Shown here piece by piece: positions 12,680 to 31,233 of a DNA stretch of 32,000 nt; the first letter of the stretch is position 1; the number at the start of each line of letters is the position of its first letter. Source of the stretch: Flavobacterium capsici (GTDB lineage Bacteria > Bacteroidota > Bacteroidia > Flavobacteriales > Flavobacteriaceae); assembly GCF_032098525.1 (NCBI RefSeq), contig NZ_CP134890.1:2635363-2667362 (forward strand). Direction: 5' to 3'. A program made the position numbers and the translations under genes. The notes below the pieces were generated by a model. That model searched no databases. It was not told the DNA's origin and saw nothing but the letters and a program-made list of their open reading frames with translations.

Positions 12680-12705
12680 AATATAAGTTCTTTTTCAAGA
12701 ATATA

Positions 12706-12733
12706 AAAGCTCCGCAAATGCGGAGCTTTTTTT
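12706..12733 (+). terminator. Rho-independent terminator of hppA
   Basis: AAAGCTCCGC pairs with GCGGAGCTTT across a 4-nt loop. A run of seven T follows. Confidence 0.85.
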
Positions 12734-12789
12734 ATGATAAATCAATCTAATAGCTAAATAGTAGACATTTATAATTAAATAGTTCCTAT

Positions 12790-13104
12790 TCATTAGTCAA
12801 GCTTACATATTTACAATAGAAGAGTTCGGTTTCATAGTTAAAGGTTAGACATTTATAGTTGAATGTCCCACTTTCATTAGTGAAGATTAGATATTTATTA
12901 ATGAATATTACAAATTCATATATGAAACCCAGACATTCATTAGTGAATCCTACAAGTTTTTCTTTGAATATTACAAATTCATTAGTGAATCCTACAAATT
13001 CATTTATAAATGTCACGCATTCATAATTGAATCCTACACATTTATCTATGAATATTACAAGTTCATTTATGAAACCTACAGATTCATTAATCAATCTAAA
13101 ATTT
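12790..13104. repeat. Tandem array of 15 degenerate repeats in strict 21-nt register
   Basis: Units start at 12790, 12811, 12832, ... 13084 with no indels. The consensus is roughly TCATTAnTGAAtcCTACAaAT. TGAA is conserved at unit positions 8-11 and AT at positions 20-21. Confidence 0.9.
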
Positions 13105-13118
13105 TAGCATTAAAAACT

Positions 13119-13709
13119 CTAAACGTGTTTTCCTTTTTCCCAACCCGTTTTTCCTAAGTAGTGTTCGGCACTTTCAATTGCGCCTTGTTCTATAGTGGTT
13201 CCCATAGAATCATTCCAACGGTTGAGGTAGCCAAAAAGCGAAATAACACCTAGCATTTCTACAATTTCGCCTTCGTTCCAATATTTGTAAAGTTCTGATT
13301 TAATGTTTTCATCTACGTTGTTTGGAATTACTGAAGCAGCCAAAGCAAAGTTCAAAGCAGCACGTTCAGCTTCAGAAAAAGCAGGATGTGATGCATATTC
13401 CCAAATATTATCCAGTTGTTCTTGGTCGGCGCCGTAGCGTTCCGCAGCACGAATGGTATGCGCTTGACAATACCTGCAACCAGCGGCATTACTAGAAACC
13501 CAACCAATCATGCGTTTCAATGCTGAGGTAACACGTCCTTGGTTTTCCATCACGGCTTTATTTAAATTAATAAACGCTTTGGAAATCGCAGGACGATGTT
13601 GCATCGTCAATACTGAATTGGGACAAAAACCTAAGGTTTCGTTGAAAAATGCAGCGAGTTCTTGGGTTTCTTTATCGTGTTCTGGCGAAAGTGGTTTAAC
13701 TAATGGCAT
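13119..13709 (-). CDS. Carboxymuconolactone decarboxylase / AhpD-like peroxidase-related protein
   Basis: 196 aa with the AhpD-family CxxC core (AAGCRYCQAHT). Confidence 0.85.
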   Translation of the reverse strand: MPLVKPLSPEHDKETQELAAFFNETLGFCPNSVLTMQHRPAISKAFINLNKAVMENQGRVTSALKRMIGWVSSNAAGCRYCQAHTIRAAERYGADQEQLDNIWEYASHPAFSEAERAALNFALAASVIPNNVDENIKSELYKYWNEGEIVEMLGVISLFGYLNRWNDSMGTTIEQGAIESAEHYLGKTGWEKGKHV

Positions 13710-19004: not shown

Positions 19005-20255
19005 TTATAATCCAAAAGCTGTTTTTATTTTGTCTACAAAATCTAATTTTTCCCAAGTAAATAACTCAACTATTACAGTTTTTGGCGCACCATTTGGTAA
19101 TTGGAACGTTTTAGAAACCGTTTCAGGTTTTCTTCCCATATGTCCATAAGCAGCAGTTTCACTATAAATTGGGTTTCTTAATTTTAAACGTTGCTCAATA
19201 AAATATGGACGCATATCAAAAATAGTTTCAACAACTTTAGAAATTTCACCATCAGTCATATTCACTTTTGCAGTTCCATATGTATTTACGTTGATAGAAG
19301 TTGGTTTAGCTACACCAATAGCGTACGAAACTTGAACTAAAATTTCATCACACAATCCAGCAGCAACTAAATTTTTAGCAATATGACGTGTAGCATAAGC
19401 TGCAGAACGGTCAACTTTACTAGGATCTTTTCCAGAAAAAGCACCACCACCATGAGCACCTTTTCCACCATAAGTATCAACAATAATTTTTCTTCCTGTT
19501 AAACCTGTATCACCATGCGGTCCACCAATCACAAATTTCCCAGTTGGATTGATATGATATGTAATATCATCATTAAATAAATGTGCATATTGAGGATATT
19601 TTGCTTTAACTCTTGGAATCAAAATTGACACTAAATCACTTTTGATTTTAGCTAACATAGTTGGTTCATCAGCAAAATCATCATGTTGAGTAGAAATTAC
19701 AATAGCATCAATTCTAACAGGTTTGTTATCGTCAGAATACTCTAGAGTTACTTGCGATTTTGCGTCTGGGCGCAGGTATTTAATTTCGTTATTTTCTCTT
19801 CTGATAGCGGCTAATTCAATCAATAATGCATGCGATAAATCTAACGCCAAAGGCATGTAATTTTCGGTTTCATTTGTAGCATATCCAAACATCATTCCTT
19901 GATCGCCAGCGCCTTGTTCTTCTTTGCTTGCTCTGTCAACACCTTGATTAATATCTGCAGATTGTTCGTGAATTGCTGAAAGTACTCCACAAGAATCTGC
20001 TTCAAACATGTATTCACTTTTTGTATAACCAATTTTGCGAATAACTTCTCTCGCAATTTGTTGAACATCAAGATAAGTAGTTGATTTTACTTCACCAGCT
20101 AAAATTACTTGACCAGTAGTTACTAAAGTTTCACAAGCCACTTTTGAATCAGCATCAAACGCTAAAAAATTATCAATTAATGCATCACTAATTTGATCAG
20201 CAACTTTATCAGGATGTCCTTCACTAACTGACTCCGACGTAAATAAATAAGCCAT
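19005..20255 (-). CDS. metK: S-adenosylmethionine synthetase
   Basis: 416 aa. Signatures: [25 protein letters not shown] and [19 protein letters not shown]. Confidence 0.97.
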
Positions 20256-20295: not shown

Positions 20296-20406
20296 GAAAA
20301 AAGTGGATTGCCAACAAAGCTAAAGGAGAGTTTCTGCTTTAGCATTTTTTAACGAGGTTGCAATCAGTTCAAATTTCTCCTCTTTATTTTTTCGATTGCA
20401 AATGTA
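20296..20406 (-). promoter_or_regulatory. Structured 5' leader of metK with mutually exclusive helices and a T-run (candidate riboswitch/attenuator, class unassigned)
   Basis: All reads are on the minus strand. A -7-like box TACATTTG lies at 20399-20406. Segment A is TGCAATC (20394-20400), segment B is GATTGCAAC (20357-20365) and segment C is GTTGGCAATC (within 20303-20315). A:B and B:C pairings are mutually exclusive. B:C is followed by CAC and then TTTTTT. A nested hairpin GCTAAAG/CTTTAGC lies at 20319-20343. Confidence 0.4.
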
Positions 20407-24957: not shown

Positions 24958-25020
24958 CTAAAACTGTTGCAAATTAAAATTCTATGCCTTTACTTTGCAC
25001 CGTTCATAAACATAATGATT

Positions 25021-25119
25021 GTTATCACGAAAGCTGGAGAGATTAGACTCTATGAAAGCTTAGCAACCCTACACTTGTAGAAGGTGCTACATTCTATTCG
25101 CCTTGGCGAAACAGATAAC
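25021..25119 (+). promoter_or_regulatory. SAM-I (S-box) riboswitch
   Basis: P1 pairs GTTATC (25021-25026) with GATAAC (25114-25119). The P2/kink-turn region is GCTGGAGAGATTAGACTCTATGAAAGC. The core strings TTAGCAACC and GGTGCTACATTC are present. P3 is CTAC-ACTT-GTAG and P4 is TTCGC-CTTG-GCGAA. The order and spacing match the S-box consensus (..AUC.AGAG.GG.GGAGGGA..GGCCC.AUGAA.CC.GCAACC...GGUGCUAA.UCC...AGAU.A). Confidence 0.85.
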
Positions 25120-25177
25120 CCGAAGAAATACTTTCCAGTTTCTGATAACAATTAATTTATAAAACGTTATTAGAAAA

Positions 25178-26167: not shown

Positions 26168-28827
26168 TGGCGCAAGCAAAATACTTAAAATTATCAGGTC
26201 TTGAACCTTTAATAATAACTCCTGAAACCAATTTTGTAAATGTTGGTGAAAGAACCAATGTAACAGGTTCGCGAAAATTTCTTCGTTTAATCAAAGAAGA
26301 AAAATTTGAAGAAGCATTGGATATTGCAAGAAATCAAGTTGAAGGTGGCGCGCAAATTATTGATGTAAATATGGACGAAGGAATGCTTGATGGAGTAGAA
26401 GCAATGACTAAATTCTTAAATCTGATAGCTGCTGAACCAGATATTGCTCGTGTTCCGGTGATGATTGATAGCTCTAAATGGGAAATTATTGAAGCGGGTT
26501 TAAAAGTCATCCAAGGAAAAGGAGTTGTAAATTCTATTTCTTTAAAAGAAGGAAAAGAAGCTTTCATTCATCATGCAAAATTAATCAAACGCTATGGTGC
26601 AGCAGTAATTGTTATGGCTTTTGACGAAAATGGTCAAGCGGATACTTATGAAAGACGCATCGAAATTTGCAAAAGAAGTTATGATATTTTGGTAAATGAA
26701 GTTCATTTTCCAGCCGAAGATATCATTTTTGATCCTAATATTTTTCCGGTTGCAACTGGAATGGATGAACATAAATTAAACGCCTTGGATTTTTTCAGAG
26801 CAACCAAATGGATTCGAGAAAATTTACCTTATGCACATGTTTCTGGTGGTGTGAGCAATGTTTCATTCTCTTTTCGTGGCAACGACAAAGTGCGTGAAGC
26901 AATGCATTCTGCATTTTTATATCATGCCATTCAAAATGGTATGACAATGGGAATTGTAAACCCTGAAATGTTGGAGATTTATGATGAAATTGATAAAAAC
27001 TTACTCGAACATGTGGAAGATGTTTTGCTAAATAGAAGAGAAGATGCAACAGAACGATTACTAGATTTAGCAGAAAGTTTTAAAGGTGATTTTAAGTCAA
27101 ATGAAAAAGCTATTGCGGAATGGAGAAATGAAGATGTACAATCTCGTTTAACGCATTCGTTAGTAAAAGGAATTGATGAATTCATCGAAATTGATGTAGA
27201 AGAAGCGAGACAACAGGTTGCTCGACCTATAGAAGTTATCGAAAATCATCTGATGAATGGAATGAATGTAGTCGGTGATTTGTTTGGTTCAGGAAAAATG
27301 TTTTTGCCACAAGTAGTGAAATCGGCTCGTGTGATGAAAAAAGCAGTAGCATATTTGTTACCATTTATTGAAGCTCAAAAAGACGGAAAATCTTCTTCTG
27401 CAGGAAAAGTGTTGATGGCAACCGTAAAAGGTGATGTTCATGATATTGGTAAAAATATTGTATCAGTGGTATTGGCTTGTAATAACTTTGAAATTATTGA
27501 TTTAGGAGTTATGGTTCCGCCAGAAAAAATAATTGCTGCAGCGGTTGAACATAATGTTGATATTATAGGTTTAAGTGGTTTGATTACACCTTCGCTTGAT
27601 GAAATGGTTTATTTGGCAAAAGAATTAGATAAACTGAATATCAAAATCCCAGTAATGATTGGTGGTGCAACAACATCTCGTGCGCATACTGCGGTAAAAA
27701 TTGCCCCTGAATATGCTGCTTCAGTGGTTCATGTCAATGATGCTTCGCGTGCTGTTACCGTTGCGAGTAATTTACTTCAAGTAGAAACAAAAGATAAATA
27801 TTCGAAGAATATAAGAGAAGAATACGATACGCTAAGAGAACAATTTTTGAATAGAAGTCGCGAAAAGAATTATTTATCAATTGAAGAAGCTCGTAAAAAC
27901 AAATTAAAATTGGATTGGGAAAATTATAATCCAGTAAAGCCAAATTTTATTGGGACAAAAACTATTGATGTTGAACTTTCGGAATTGATTGATTTTATAG
28001 ATTGGACACCCTTTTTTCAGTCTTGGGAATTACACGGAAAATATCCTGCTATTCTAACCGATGAAATTGTGGGCGAACAAGCTACTAATCTATTTGCAGA
28101 TGCGGAAAAATTGTTGAATCAGATAGTTGATGAAAAATGGTTCGAAGCAAAAGGGATTCTAGGTATTTTTCCAGCAAATACTGTTAATGATGACGATATA
28201 GAACTCATTAATCAGAACTCAAAATTCTTGACTCTTCGTCAGCAATCACAAAAAACAGTTGGCGCGCCAAATATTGCGTTAGCGGATTTTATTGCTCCCA
28301 AAGATTCAGGAATTCAAGATTACATAGGTTGTTTTTGTGTTTCGACAGGATTTGGAGTTGAGGAAAAGGCAGCTGAATACAGAAAAGAATTGGATGATTA
28401 TAATTCCATTTTAATTCAAGCACTTGGTGATAGATTAGCTGAAGCTTTTGCTGAATATTTGCATCTAAAAGTTAGAAAAGAAATTTGGGGTTATGATTCG
28501 GATGAAAATCTTTCAAACGAAGAATTAATCAAAGAAAATTACAAAGGAATTCGTCCTGCGCCTGGTTATCCTGCATGTCCTGACCATTTGGAGAAACCTA
28601 CCATTTGGAAATTATTAAATGCGGAAGAAGAAATTGGTGTAAAACTAACCGAAAGCATGGCCATGTGGCCTGCATCATCCGTTTCGGGATATTATTTTGC
28701 TAATCCACAAAGTAAATATTTTGGACTAGGGAAAATAAAAATGGACCAAGTAGAAGATTACGCTAAAAGAAGAAATATAAGTATAGAAGAAGCTACAAAA
28801 TGGCTTAACCCAAATATTGCCGACTAA
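26167..28827 (+). CDS. metH: Methionine synthase, pterin-binding + cobalamin-binding + AdoMet-activation modules
   Basis: 886 aa. The pterin-binding region reads [14 protein letters not shown]. The B12 motifs are [19 protein letters not shown] and MIGGATTS. The C-terminal activation domain reads [12 protein letters not shown]. Confidence 0.93.
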
Positions 28828-28828
28828 T

Positions 28829-29785
28829 ATGAAAGTAACTCAACACATAGAAAATGCTAACGGAAAACCATTGTTTTCCTTTGAAATATTGCCGCCGTTA
28901 AAAGGACAAAACATTCAATCTATTTTTGATGGTATTGATCCGTTGATGGAGTTTAAGCCGCCATTTATTGATGTAACTTATCATCGAGAAGAATATGAAT
29001 TTAAAGAATTGCCAAACGGTTTGTTGCAAAAAAAGATTGTAAAAAAACGTCCGGGAACGGTTGGTATTTGTGCTGGAATTCAAAACAAATATGATGTAGA
29101 TGCTATTCCGCATATTTTGTGTGGTGGTTTTACTAAAGAAGACACTGAGAATTTATTAATTGATTTGGATTTTCTTGGAATTGATAATGTTGTTGCGCTT
29201 AGAGGAGATGCATTGAAAAATGAAACGTATTTTAAACCCGAAAAAGAAGGAAACGAATTTGCATCCGATTTGGTGTTGCAAATTTCTAATTTGAATAAAG
29301 GAATTTATTTGGATGAAGATTTAAAAAACTCGGCGGAAACTAATTTTTGTATTGGAATTGCTGGTTATCCTGAAAAACATATGGAAGCTCCGAGCATGGA
29401 TAGCGACATTCATTTTTTGAAACAAAAGATAAAAAATGGTGCCGATTATATTATTACTCAAATGTTTTTTGACAATAAAAAATTCTTTGATTTTGTAGAT
29501 AAATGTAGAAAATCGGGGATTACTATTCCTATTATTCCGGGATTGAAACCTATTGCAACTAAGAAACAATTGAATTTGATTCCGCATCGGTTTAAGGTTG
29601 ATTTGCCAGATGATTTGATTATGGCAGTGGTGAAAGCAAAAGATAATGATGCGGTGAAACAAATTGGGATTGAATGGTGTATTGAACAAAGCAAAGAGTT
29701 GATAGAAGCTGGAATTCCGTGTTTGCATTATTACTCGATGGGTAAAGCGGACAATATTAAAGCAATTGCTAAGGAAATCTTTTAG
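28829..29785 (+). CDS. metF: 5,10-methylenetetrahydrofolate reductase
   Basis: MTHFR family: FSFEILPP...DVTYH... and ITQMFFD. I prefer ATG 28829 (MKVTQHIE), 2 nt after the metH stop, over the track's TTG at 28817. Confidence 0.9.
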   Translation: MKVTQHIENANGKPLFSFEILPPLKGQNIQSIFDGIDPLMEFKPPFIDVTYHREEYEFKELPNGLLQKKIVKKRPGTVGICAGIQNKYDVDAIPHILCGGFTKEDTENLLIDLDFLGIDNVVALRGDALKNETYFKPEKEGNEFASDLVLQISNLNKGIYLDEDLKNSAETNFCIGIAGYPEKHMEAPSMDSDIHFLKQKIKNGADYIITQMFFDNKKFFDFVDKCRKSGITIPIIPGLKPIATKKQLNLIPHRFKVDLPDDLIMAVVKAKDNDAVKQIGIEWCIEQSKELIEAGIPCLHYYSMGKADNIKAIAKEIF

Positions 29786-29797
29786 TAGTTAGATTGC

Positions 29798-29995
29798 GAG
29801 ACTGTATAGATTGAACAGGTTTTGATGTATATGCTTTGCGTTACGATGTTGTTGTTTTAGGATACTTTATAGATGCTTTGAGTTACTTTATAGATTGTTT
29901 TGGAGACGATGTAGATACTTTGAGTGACGATATAGATGGATTGAGAGACGATGTAGATGGATTGTGATACTCTGTAAATATTCTGTGATACTTTA
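29798..29995. repeat. Tandem array of about 9-10 degenerate repeats in strict 21-nt register
   Basis: Units start at 29798, 29819, 29840, 29861, 29882, 29903, 29924, 29945 and 29966, plus a partial unit at 29987, with no indels. The consensus is roughly GAGACGATGTAGATgctTTGa. A degenerate extra unit at 29777 overlaps the metF stop. Confidence 0.85.
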
Positions 29996-30093
29996 TTTTT
30001 TTGAACAAGGCGTTTACTAATTAGCCCTGATGGAAGCAAGCTACCGTGTAGCGCGGACAGCAGGAAAAGGGATTATTATATTGCCCAAGCGGA

Positions 30094-30122
30094 TTGCTCC
30101 TTAAAATATTCTGTTATATTTG
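30094..30122 (+). promoter_or_regulatory. Candidate Bacteroidota-type promoter for the downstream acyloxyacyl-hydrolase-like gene
   Basis: TTG at 30094-30096, an 18-nt spacer, then a perfect TAnnTTTG box TATATTTG (30115-30122). It ends 20 nt upstream of the ATG. Confidence 0.45.
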
Positions 30123-30141
30123 CGATGCTTAAATTTTTGGG

Positions 30142-31233
30142 ATGCGACAATTTTATTTGTTTATTTTTCTTTGTGGAATAGTGGGGTTTTCTCAGAAAAA
30201 CACTTCTTATTCTTTAGATGTTTCGTTTTTGAGAGGTAATACTTTGCCGCATACTGAGGATATGTATCATTTGGTAAATGGTCATCCTGATGGTGTTTTG
30301 GTGAGTTTTTTGCAGAAAACTAATGGTTCAAAAGAGTGGCATAGAGCGTATAATTACCCGGATTTTGGGGGTTATTTTTTGTATCAAGATTTTCAAAGTG
30401 AACCTTTGGGGAAAAATTATGCTGTTGGTGCGATGTATAATTTTTACTTTCTTAATCGTAAATTACAATTTAAGATTTCGCAAGGTGTAGCGGTGACTAC
30501 AAATCCGTATGACAAGGTGAATAATAGCAAGAATAAGGCTTTTGGGAGTAGAATTATGGATAATACCAACTTTGGGTTGAGTTATGATAATCAGCATCTT
30601 TTTGGTGGGAAAATAGGTTTTCATGCTGGGCTTCTTTTTACGCATTATTCGAATGGAAGGGTAAAATCGCCTAACAGCGGAATTAATACTTATTTGTTGA
30701 ATGTTGGTGTGAATTATAATTTTGAGAAAGATTTTGTTCGACAAGTTGATACTACAACGGTAAAAAAATCATACAAAGAGCCTATTCGATATAATTTTGT
30801 ATTTAGAACTGGTGTTAATGAAAGTCCTATTATTGGCAGTGGACAATATCCTTTTTATCATATTGGTTTTTATGCGGATAAGCGAATCAACAGAAAATCG
30901 GCTTTGCAACTGGGAACTGAAATTTTCTTAACCCAGTCGATGAAAGAATATATTCGTTACTTCTCGATTGGCTATCCTGAAATGAATCTTGACCCAAACA
31001 CGGATTATAAGCGAATTGGTGTTTTTGTTGGGCATGAATTATTGATTAATAAAATTTCTCTCGAAGCGCAATTGGGTTATTATGTGTATCAGCCATTCAA
31101 GAAAGATATTGCAGTTTATGATAGAGTAGGGATGAAATATTATTTTAGCGATAAAGTTTTTGGTGGATTTACGATAAAAACGCATATGTTTTTAGCTGAA
31201 GCATTGGAATTTGGAATTGGTTACAGAATTTAA
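30142..31233 (+). CDS. Outer-membrane acyloxyacyl hydrolase-like (PagL-type lipid A deacylase-like) protein
   Basis: 363 aa with a signal peptide (MRQFYLFIFLCGIVGFSQ). It is beta-barrel-like with alternating aromatic strands and contains HYSNGR, resembling the His-Ser region of lipid A deacylases. The family call is from memory and tentative. Confidence 0.5.
   Translation: MRQFYLFIFLCGIVGFSQKNTSYSLDVSFLRGNTLPHTEDMYHLVNGHPDGVLVSFLQKTNGSKEWHRAYNYPDFGGYFLYQDFQSEPLGKNYAVGAMYNFYFLNRKLQFKISQGVAVTTNPYDKVNNSKNKAFGSRIMDNTNFGLSYDNQHLFGGKIGFHAGLLFTHYSNGRVKSPNSGINTYLLNVGVNYNFEKDFVRQVDTTTVKKSYKEPIRYNFVFRTGVNESPIIGSGQYPFYHIGFYADKRINRKSALQLGTEIFLTQSMKEYIRYFSIGYPEMNLDPNTDYKRIGVFVGHELLINKISLEAQLGYYVYQPFKKDIAVYDRVGMKYYFSDKVFGGFTIKTHMFLAEALEFGIGYRI

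Follow-up and report, generated by a model that had tools for sequence, protein, structure and literature searches.

A tandem array of ten 21-nt units fills most of the 356-nt spacer between metF and a gene for a PagL-like protein in a 32,000-nt stretch of the Flavobacterium capsici genome (NZ_CP134890.1, positions 2,635,363 to 2,667,362; the whole stretch is called the window throughout). The array is probably an old non-coding 21-bp minisatellite, that is, a tandem array of the variable number tandem repeat (VNTR) type. We infer that it has no dedicated function and that it went through a phase of growth followed by decay. By its unit profile, it belongs to a small unit family (GACGATRTAGATnnnTTG), and this family in turn is one of at least four families that are unrelated in sequence and have the same 21-nt period. 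The preference for this period is statistically striking.

Structure of the array

The array and its edges occupy the following window positions.

29798..30007, no strand assigned: array of 21-nt units; the middle units (29903-29965) are best kept and both ends are degenerate
29777..29797, no strand assigned: degenerate leading unit, in register, overlapping the last metF codons and the TAG stop (direct reading)
29996..30002, plus strand: distal T-run of the array (seven T), without a preceding hairpin

In the register starting at 29798, the ten units follow one another head to tail with zero indels and are about 60-70% alike. Read in the GAC register from 29800, the consensus is (G/T)AC-GAT-RTA-GAT-nnn-TTG-nGn, and within each unit a kept core of 11-12 bp adjoins a variable spacer. 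In the core T(G/A)TAGAT, already described in the first-pass annotation of the window, T8, T10 and T14 were present in 10/10 units. Tandem Repeats Finder (TRF) reported period 21 at 29868-29959, with 4.4 copies at 73% matches, as well as period 42 at 29824-29959. The array strand contains 24% G and 8% C; the G+C content of the window is 32%.

The lag-21 self-identity of the array peaked at 0.72 (105-nt windows). As a null model, the whole 32-kb window was simulated 100 times by a first-order Markov process and scored over all lags from 5 to 69; the maximum self-identity of the simulations averaged 0.51, and the top value was 0.56. In the window itself, lag-21 self-identity exceeded 0.55 at only two sites, this array and 12748-13132. 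As all simulations stayed at or below 0.56, the array is real, and so is the indel-free 21-nt register that the first-pass annotation had placed after metF. The same annotation was also right that the metF stop (TAG, 29783-29785) and the array are separated by no terminator-like hairpin and that a T-run stands at the distal end. The array begins 12 nt past the stop codon. A scan of 29786-30141 found no terminator-like hairpin, and because no hairpin lies ahead of the T-run, the latter is not a canonical intrinsic terminator.

Several properties of the minisatellite/VNTR class are found in the array: an imperfect head-to-tail unit within the range of 10-100 bp, several copies, and a location outside genes, with the metF stop (29785) on one side and the PagL start (30142) on the other. 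No residual periodicity of 7 or 14 nt was detected within the 21-nt units (lag-7 identity 0.25, background level). Descent from heptanucleotide arrays was therefore discarded as unsupported.

Homologous and unrelated 21-nt arrays

We compared 80 species-representative Flavobacteriaceae loci around metF, 1.44 Mb in total. No such array followed metF in 79/80 related species, and the only homologous array was found at L020, a Flavobacterium metagenome-assembled genome, in the orthologous spacer between metF and PagL, which also has a Flavo-1 motif. PagL was inside the fetched stretch at 43 loci (including L001, the window's own), where it usually starts 30-240 nt past metF without an array. The patchy presence, with 79/80 spacers lacking the array and often measuring only 30-240 nt, points to recent gain or loss. 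A metagenome scan with a one-unit pattern returned 81 loci, which were mostly single chance matches. Two of them, L093 and L106, came from the same population as L020, while L111/L126 (G+C 33%) contained a 12-unit array with almost the same unit as the array after metF. The latter array begins about 20 nt past a maltokinase-like gene, itself located after GlgE, and has the same orientation to its flanking genes as in the window. The unit profile of L020 agreed with that of the window array in the same register and on the same strand (P < 0.001), and comparison with the L111/L126 profile also gave P < 0.001; the family consensus given above is common to all three. With the metF site in the window and the maltokinase site in L111/L126, the unit family therefore has at least two unrelated sites, found in different genomes.

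Aligned in register, the window array and the L126 array were 63% identical, compared with 60-62% when shifted by whole units, and only the penultimate 'GTAAAT' unit looked position-specific. No flanks beyond the array were shared among the window, L126 and L020, and no inverted repeats of at least 10 nt were present in 29700-30150. A collinear mobile module or a MITE (miniature inverted-repeat transposable element) was therefore rejected: the register was barely better than its shifts and terminal inverted repeats were missing, so that nothing in these data speaks for a MITE-like vehicle. An nhmmer profile of the array found no second copy in 51 kb of this genome (CP134878.1 1060678-1111644), and in 1.6 Mb of relatives it found only L020. 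Plasmid and phage BLAST searches with this array (array 2) and with arrays 1 and 3, described below, yielded no similarity, and a pattern scan of viral contigs gave five single chance matches only.

Three further 21-nt arrays, one of them in the window, were located in this genome and in a relative.

12762..13097, no strand assigned: array 1, sixteen 21-nt units with higher order at 42 and 84 nt; dyad ATTCA-N4-TGAAT in each unit
L178 19169-19399 (CP134878.1 1062104-1062334; approximately -8307 to -8077 in window coordinates): array 3, 11 degenerate units wAACyTC-N6-GAAGtTAA
L181 19777-19997: array 4, unit GAGTGCTCTACATTTTTCTAT, 10.5 units, 88% identity, 0 indels

Array 1 is bounded on one side by the stop of a minus-strand CMD-family gene (13119) and on the other by a perfect 12-bp hairpin terminator (12705-12730), which comes after a plus-strand H+-PPase gene. 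Its position is therefore not simply the 3' end of a plus-strand operon, as had been assumed in the first reading of the window. Taken alone, array 1 had an RNA fold z of -1.97 and a 102-aa open reading frame (ORF) on the minus strand, which is absent from public gene calls. Array 3 was detected by a period-blind scan of all lags in a 10-kb leftward extension of the genome. It is flanked by a perfect 14-bp hairpin terminator (19135-19163) and by the stop of a converging FtsX/MacB-like gene, the same layout as in array 1. Its units contain the dyad AACyTC/GAAGtT, its RNA fold z was -3.44, and a 20-nt direct repeat, TGATTAACTCATTTTGAGAG, stands beside it in 2.2 copies (19406-19449).

Array 4 belongs to a relative with about 90% protein identity and starts about 80 nt past metF, directly 3' of a terminator-like hairpin with a T-run. 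The same array was found at L189 10174-10331 with 7.5 units of GAGTGCTCTACATTTTTCTAT, exactly 63 nt (three units) fewer than in L181. The immediate flanks are identical, the two loci share 96% identity over 10 kb, and within the arrays the units show 88-90% matches. This difference of three units is VNTR behaviour. In the comparison of unit numbers between strains, proposed in the first-pass annotation, this sister array had 10.5 versus 7.5 units; the independent assemblies of the L020 array and of the L126 array were identical, but each pair came from the same population. A 108-aa ORF that starts with ATG and encodes SALHFSM heptads runs through array 4 and has no public gene call.

Profile comparison showed the units of arrays 1, 2, 3 and 4 to be mutually unrelated. 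The TGTAG/TATAG core that arrays 1 and 2 were thought to share was rejected, since over all rotations and both strands the resemblance was at chance level (P = 0.95 versus column shuffles). In relation to terminators the arrays also differ: arrays 1 and 3 precede a hairpin, array 4 follows one, and the array after metF has none. This lack of a fixed relation argues against a common function in 3' untranslated regions (UTRs).

A period-blind census of 1.6 Mb (88 loci), with regions classified by fundamental period, gave 32 regions with period 7, six with period 21, three with period 6, and one for each other period. Twenty-one was the only recurring period of at least 15 nt, and all arrays with at least eight units had this period. 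Within 51 kb of this genome three arrays were counted; the yield from about 1.5 Mb of other species was one homologue, one unrelated family and a single REP-like array. The first-pass annotation had suggested a genome-wide element class, an idea that depended on further 21-nt arrays in this genome or its relatives. Such arrays do exist, with the third array 8 kb left of the window, the homologues in L020 and L111/L126, the fourth array, and 21 as the sole recurrent longer period. What did not hold is the unity of the class: the four unit families are unrelated, 79/80 species have no array after metF, and the relation to transcript ends is not constant.

Among the tandem repeats of these Flavobacterium loci, heptanucleotide arrays predominate; they mostly occupy short spacers 5' of genes. 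Sites include L006 6771, L033 7205, L048 15093, L071 17002, L021 11091, L176 1837 and L169 40-75, as well as a position about 7.1 kb left of the window in this genome. The array in L021 comes after metF, another in L169/L173 comes after the CMD gene, where this genome has array 1, and AATTCAT-like heptamers recur across different genomes. Two further arrays of other kinds were noticed, a REP-like array of 21-22-nt hairpin units (AACCCCAAATTTGACGTTCTAG) with indels at L060 18494-18635, and a 42-nt AT-rich array at L017 11324-11648 within an insertion between metF and PagL.

A HMMER search with the ORF of array 1 gave 20 weak matches (best E 2.5e-9); the eight that were read are ORFs of heptad or 14-residue repeats, and the matches are no protein family with a defined fold. 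One match was located at L192 5001-5255 (GCA_036919815.1, JBALCE010000081.1), on a contig that looks cyanobacterial by gene content. It is a 12-unit 21-nt array of GATGAACCTCTGAGCTTTGTC without indels, annotated as a 193-aa protein (P0126), and heptamer arrays of CCAATGC (8.7 copies) and ATTTGTC (5.6 copies) lie near it. The pairing of 7-nt and 21-nt arrays at this locus hints that the phenomenon may cross phyla.

Genes and signals around the array

The neighbouring features are the following.

28829..29785, plus strand: metF, methylenetetrahydrofolate reductase (Pfam PF02219, E 1e-67; public gene table)
30019..30071, plus strand: Flavo-1-like RNA/DNA motif (Rfam RF01705, 33.2 bits against a gathering threshold of 42, E 2.6e-5 locally)
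30115..30122, plus strand: box TATATTTG, which fits TAnnTTTG; 20 nt 5' of the PagL ATG (30142) and invariant in four species (alignment A1)

The metF gene is the final gene of a met operon (homocysteine methyltransferase, MetH, MetF) led by an S-adenosylmethionine (SAM) riboswitch at 25019-25121. Its longest ORF starts from a TTG at 28817 and overlaps the end of metH; the public start is the ATG at 28829 (318 aa). A read-through extension of metF into the array was rejected, as the frame in phase with metF has a TAG and a TGA in every unit. Two classes of SAM riboswitch are situated less than 5 kb apart, SAM-II 5' of metK (20329-20388, minus strand) and SAM-I (S-box) 5' of the metH-metF operon (25019-25121, plus strand). 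MetH is 1028-1047 aa long in L181 (15504-18641), L183 (15453-18539) and L189 (5903-9046), versus 886-900 aa elsewhere, and in these long forms a match to PF04480 (DUF559, Vsr-like endonuclease) lies between the B12-binding_2 and B12-binding domains. The PF04480 segment may be an inserted endonuclease or an intein-like module.

The Flavo-1-like motif is a neighbour of the array, separate from it, and is kept 5' of PagL in species without the array (alignment A1). A link between the two was rejected, since the nearest Flavo-1 in L111 is 1.6 kb off and L003 and L033 carry Flavo-1 without an array. The consensus of the Bacteroidota -7 promoter element is TAnnTTTG. The box TATATTTG lies in a conserved block downstream of the array, so that PagL has its own promoter 3' of the array; inside the array units themselves only near-matches to TAnnTTTG were found. 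The Flavo-1-like motif together with the conserved block and TATATTTG spans 30019-30122 in the window and 11336-11455 in L020 and is also present in L003 and L033; its flanks are kept, and the central hairpin is wholly different between species. Reverse-strand copies of the Flavo-1-like motif occur 5' of the met operon in L020 (6214-6305), L028 and L041.

Origin and possible roles of the array

In the history that we consider probable, 21-nt arrays of this Flavobacterium lineage would arise in intergenic DNA by the 3' ends of genes, and slipped-strand mispairing or unequal recombination would then lengthen or shorten them in steps of whole units. Gain and loss of whole units would keep the 21-nt register. 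Once the units are too diverged to misalign, an array would freeze and subsequently decay by point substitution, and the array after metF would represent this frozen and decayed stage.

The closest kind of known element is the bacterial intergenic minisatellite or VNTR, as used in multiple-locus VNTR analysis (MLVA typing) and surveyed in PMC6749651, with which the array shares imperfect head-to-tail units of 10-100 bp, an intergenic position and a patchy presence among species. The whole-unit change of copy number between strains that is typical of such loci was seen here in the sister array (L181 versus L189). The array differs from a common VNTR in being old and degenerate, in that several arrays of one lineage, though unrelated in sequence, have exactly the same period, and in that one unit family is found at unrelated loci of different species. 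Dispersed families of non-coding satellites are reported to be rare in prokaryotes, and those with long repeats were found only in Leptospira interrogans and Methanocella conradii in the survey (PMC6749651). Within the phylum, the closest named element is BrickBuilt, a minisatellite-bearing MITE of Porphyromonas gingivalis (PMC4596501), also of the Bacteroidota. Its repeats are imperfect and tandem, measure about 20 nt (23 nt) and have no spacers between them. BrickBuilt, too, is always intergenic near gene ends, has units that are half conserved and half variable, and sometimes attracts spurious ORF calls. BrickBuilt itself has a conserved leader and tail with terminal inverted repeats, and each genome carries 19 copies of a single unit family, whereas the array after metF has no inverted repeats or shared flanks, a period of 21 instead of 23, and a genome with different units in three arrays within 51 kb. 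A search of the literature on 21-bp arrays in Flavobacterium found only general background and BrickBuilt. Heptanucleotide repeats, such as the short tandemly repeated repetitive (STRR) sequences of cyanobacteria or TAACTGA of Beggiatoaceae, Cyanobacteria and Bacteroidetes, co-occur with 21-nt arrays, and 21 equals 3 x 7; heptamers are the commonest short repeat and have been attributed to polymerase slippage (as summarised in PMC4679880).

Several other identities were rejected. Mycobacterial interspersed repetitive units (MIRUs) are likewise minisatellites between the genes of operons, oriented with transcription and with a unit length that keeps the reading frame open. The ORFs of MIRUs overlap the neighbouring genes at their stop and start codons. 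Their units, however, measure 40-100 bp, while in the window metF and PagL are joined by no reading frame, and each unit puts two stops into the frame in phase with metF. The iterons of plasmid origins resemble the array as direct repeats of about 17-22 bp placed two helical turns apart, but they usually number 3-7 instead of ten, and the array has housekeeping flanks (metF, PagL-like); no rep gene, AT-rich unwinding region or plasmid/phage similarity was found at the array. On these features, neither a MIRU nor an iteron identity could be upheld. Repetitive extragenic palindromes (REP) and bacterial interspersed mosaic elements (BIME) were ruled out by the lack of inverted repeats and by an RNA fold z of +0.33, and a clustered regularly interspaced short palindromic repeat (CRISPR) array by units that abut head to tail without spacers.

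A number of observations weigh against a minisatellite that simply decays. Zero indels were found in ten units (and in 12 units of L126 and 16 of array 1) despite 30-40% divergence, which is more conservation of the register than simple neutral decay predicts. The unit consensus has been kept between species in which the four-fold sites of metF are near saturation (44% identity), which suggests constraint or transfer. Moreover, four unrelated units have a length of exactly 21 nt, a coincidence that slippage by itself does not account for; the period could correspond to two helical turns of DNA, to three of the 7-nt slippage steps dominant among short repeats of these genomes, or to seven codons. 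The difference between L181 and L189 rests on metagenome assemblies, which can collapse repeats, and there is no conspecific genome in the collections (the closest relatives have about 91% protein identity). Finally, the minus strand shows a substitution signal. In the frame described below, the ratio of nonsynonymous to synonymous change (pN/pS) was 0.48 in the window and 0.50 in L126, the lowest of the six frames and below column-order shuffles (P = 0.003 and 0.013). Within the conserved half of the unit, variability is highest in columns 1, 4, 7 and 10, the wobble positions of the minus-frame SQSIYIV heptad, and its Ser position uses both AGY and TCN codons. This signal could have been left by a coding origin, could mark a real microprotein, or could come from a DNA motif spaced by three bases.

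Two frames over the array deserve a coding assessment.

29857..30039, minus strand: open frame of 60 codons with a TTG start, SQSIYIV heptads; unsupported as a gene
29836..29967, plus strand: open frame of 43 codons with a TTG start, DDVDxLR heptads; public gene call, unsupported as a gene

A second minus-strand ORF is open at 29883-30008. The statement in the first-pass annotation that the array has an ORF on the minus strand only was therefore wrong. The ORFs of the array matched no Pfam or NCBIfam family above cut-off, and no protein homologue of the plus ORF or the minus ORF was found in 5.8 billion clusters; in a local calibration of the minus-ORF search, a relative like the L126 minus frame would score E ~3e-5. 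The codon-usage scores of all six frames were below the 5th percentile of real 210-nt gene chunks, and no frame had fewer stops than its column composition predicts.

A small protein of about 60 aa with (V-S-Q-S-I-Y-I)n heptads, encoded on the minus strand convergently with metF now or until recently, is nevertheless the reading to which the substitution signal would lend itself. Its heptads, four hydrophobic residues followed by three polar ones, suggest a beta-rich repeat peptide. The low pN/pS and the wobble columns fit such a protein, as do the varied codons for Ser (AGC, AGT, TCC, TCT, TCA) and Ile (ATC, ATT, ATA), the frame that stays open for at least 60 codons in the window, and a seven-codon period with zero indels. 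Still, we regard this protein as distinctly unlikely. Its sole start is a TTG within the Flavo-1 element, with no ATG; the frame is interrupted by seven stops in L020 and by five in L126, where it also lacks a start codon, and yet the DNA core that reads 'IY' persists in units beyond these stops. The codon-usage log-odds (-0.43, -0.80 and -1.42, against +0.13 at the 5th percentile of real genes), the lack of stop avoidance beyond column composition, the missing homologues in a search of sufficient power, and the fact that the public gene caller did not choose this frame all speak against it. The 43-aa peptide of the plus strand, in which V and L of the D-D-V-D-x-L-R heptads take positions a and d as in an acidic Lpp-type coiled coil, seems extremely unlikely. 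Its frame is open over 34-57 codons in each of the three homologous arrays, scores best of the six for codon usage and encodes Leu by TTG, CTG, CTA and TTA across units; weak matches to Lpp-type models were seen (E 0.06 and 0.01, far below the cut-offs), and the same DNA word gives DD[VI]DxL in real genes that were met by chance in the metagenome scan. On the other hand, its pN/pS was 1.0-1.4, and even this codon-usage score fell short of the 5th percentile of genes. Neither the window nor L126 offers the frame an ATG, and the 'start', always a TTG, is the heptad's own Leu codon at a position not conserved between homologous loci. In addition, the D/Y alternation at heptad position 1 is radical, and the search of the 5.8 billion clusters was negative for this peptide as well.

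Two non-coding functions can be set beside these. The array may act in the 3' UTR of metF as an unstructured, G-rich and C-poor RNA tract that binds or titrates a single-strand RNA-binding protein, or that modulates 3' end formation or read-through into PagL. The close position past the metF stop without an intervening terminator, the L126 homologue about 20 nt past the stop of another gene in the same orientation, arrays 1 and 3 between a stop codon and a hairpin terminator, and the T-run that closes the array are all in keeping with this. However, the plus-strand array showed no excess of RNA structure (fold z = +0.33) and, on 29798-30007, no match to any Rfam 15 model even at E up to 10, the sole nearby match being Flavo-1 at 30019-30071. 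The young L181 array stands 3' of a terminator-like hairpin and T-run and thus outside the metF transcript, the same orientation at two independent loci is a 1-in-2 event, and nearly all relatives with the same operon lack the array, so that a role as RNA is very unlikely. A phased cis-acting DNA element, which would act through cooperative protein binding or intrinsic curvature on gene-end topology or on the PagL promoter about 110 nt downstream, is unlikely too, if less so. With a period of 21 bp, two helical turns, the core of each unit (AC-N2-T-N-TAGAT ... TTG) comes to lie on the same face of the helix; one period recurs in four unrelated unit families without phase-breaking indels, a conserved 11-12-bp core stands beside a variable spacer, and the dyad-symmetric units of arrays 1 and 3 resemble dimer-binding sites. 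In a rough wedge model, the array was at the 3.5th percentile of the ratio of end-to-end to contour length (189-bp windows, 51 kb), a modest signal, and the minisatellites of BrickBuilt carry promoter activity (PMC4596501). Against this, dyad symmetry is entirely missing from the array after metF. Arrays 1 and 3 do not stand out in curvature (6th to 28th percentile in the same rough model) and are placed between convergent genes, where there is no promoter for them to influence, and unrelated units would call for a separate binding protein for each family. Unrelated units, varying copy number (three units between strains in the sister array) and absence from 79/80 relatives do not favour a tuned protein-binding architecture. 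A broader alternative, which we hold to be rather doubtful, is a dedicated process or constraint in the whole lineage that makes and keeps arrays of 21-bp period at gene ends, whatever the unit; extrapolated from the three arrays in 51 kb, a genome would possibly hold more than 100 of them. Its cause could be slippage or recombination in 7-nt steps, two-turn helical phasing (topology or nucleoid), or fast-evolving heptad-repeat microproteins.

Taken alone, the array after metF is ordinary decaying repetitive DNA, and it warns annotators off a spurious 43-aa gene call. Less ordinary are the at least four unrelated units with an exact period of 21, none with indels, and their high density in one genome. 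If the period preference holds true genome-wide, it would offer a handle on how the length of a repeat unit is set, whether by slippage step, helical phase or codon frame, and the arrays would provide VNTR markers for the typing of Flavobacterium strains.

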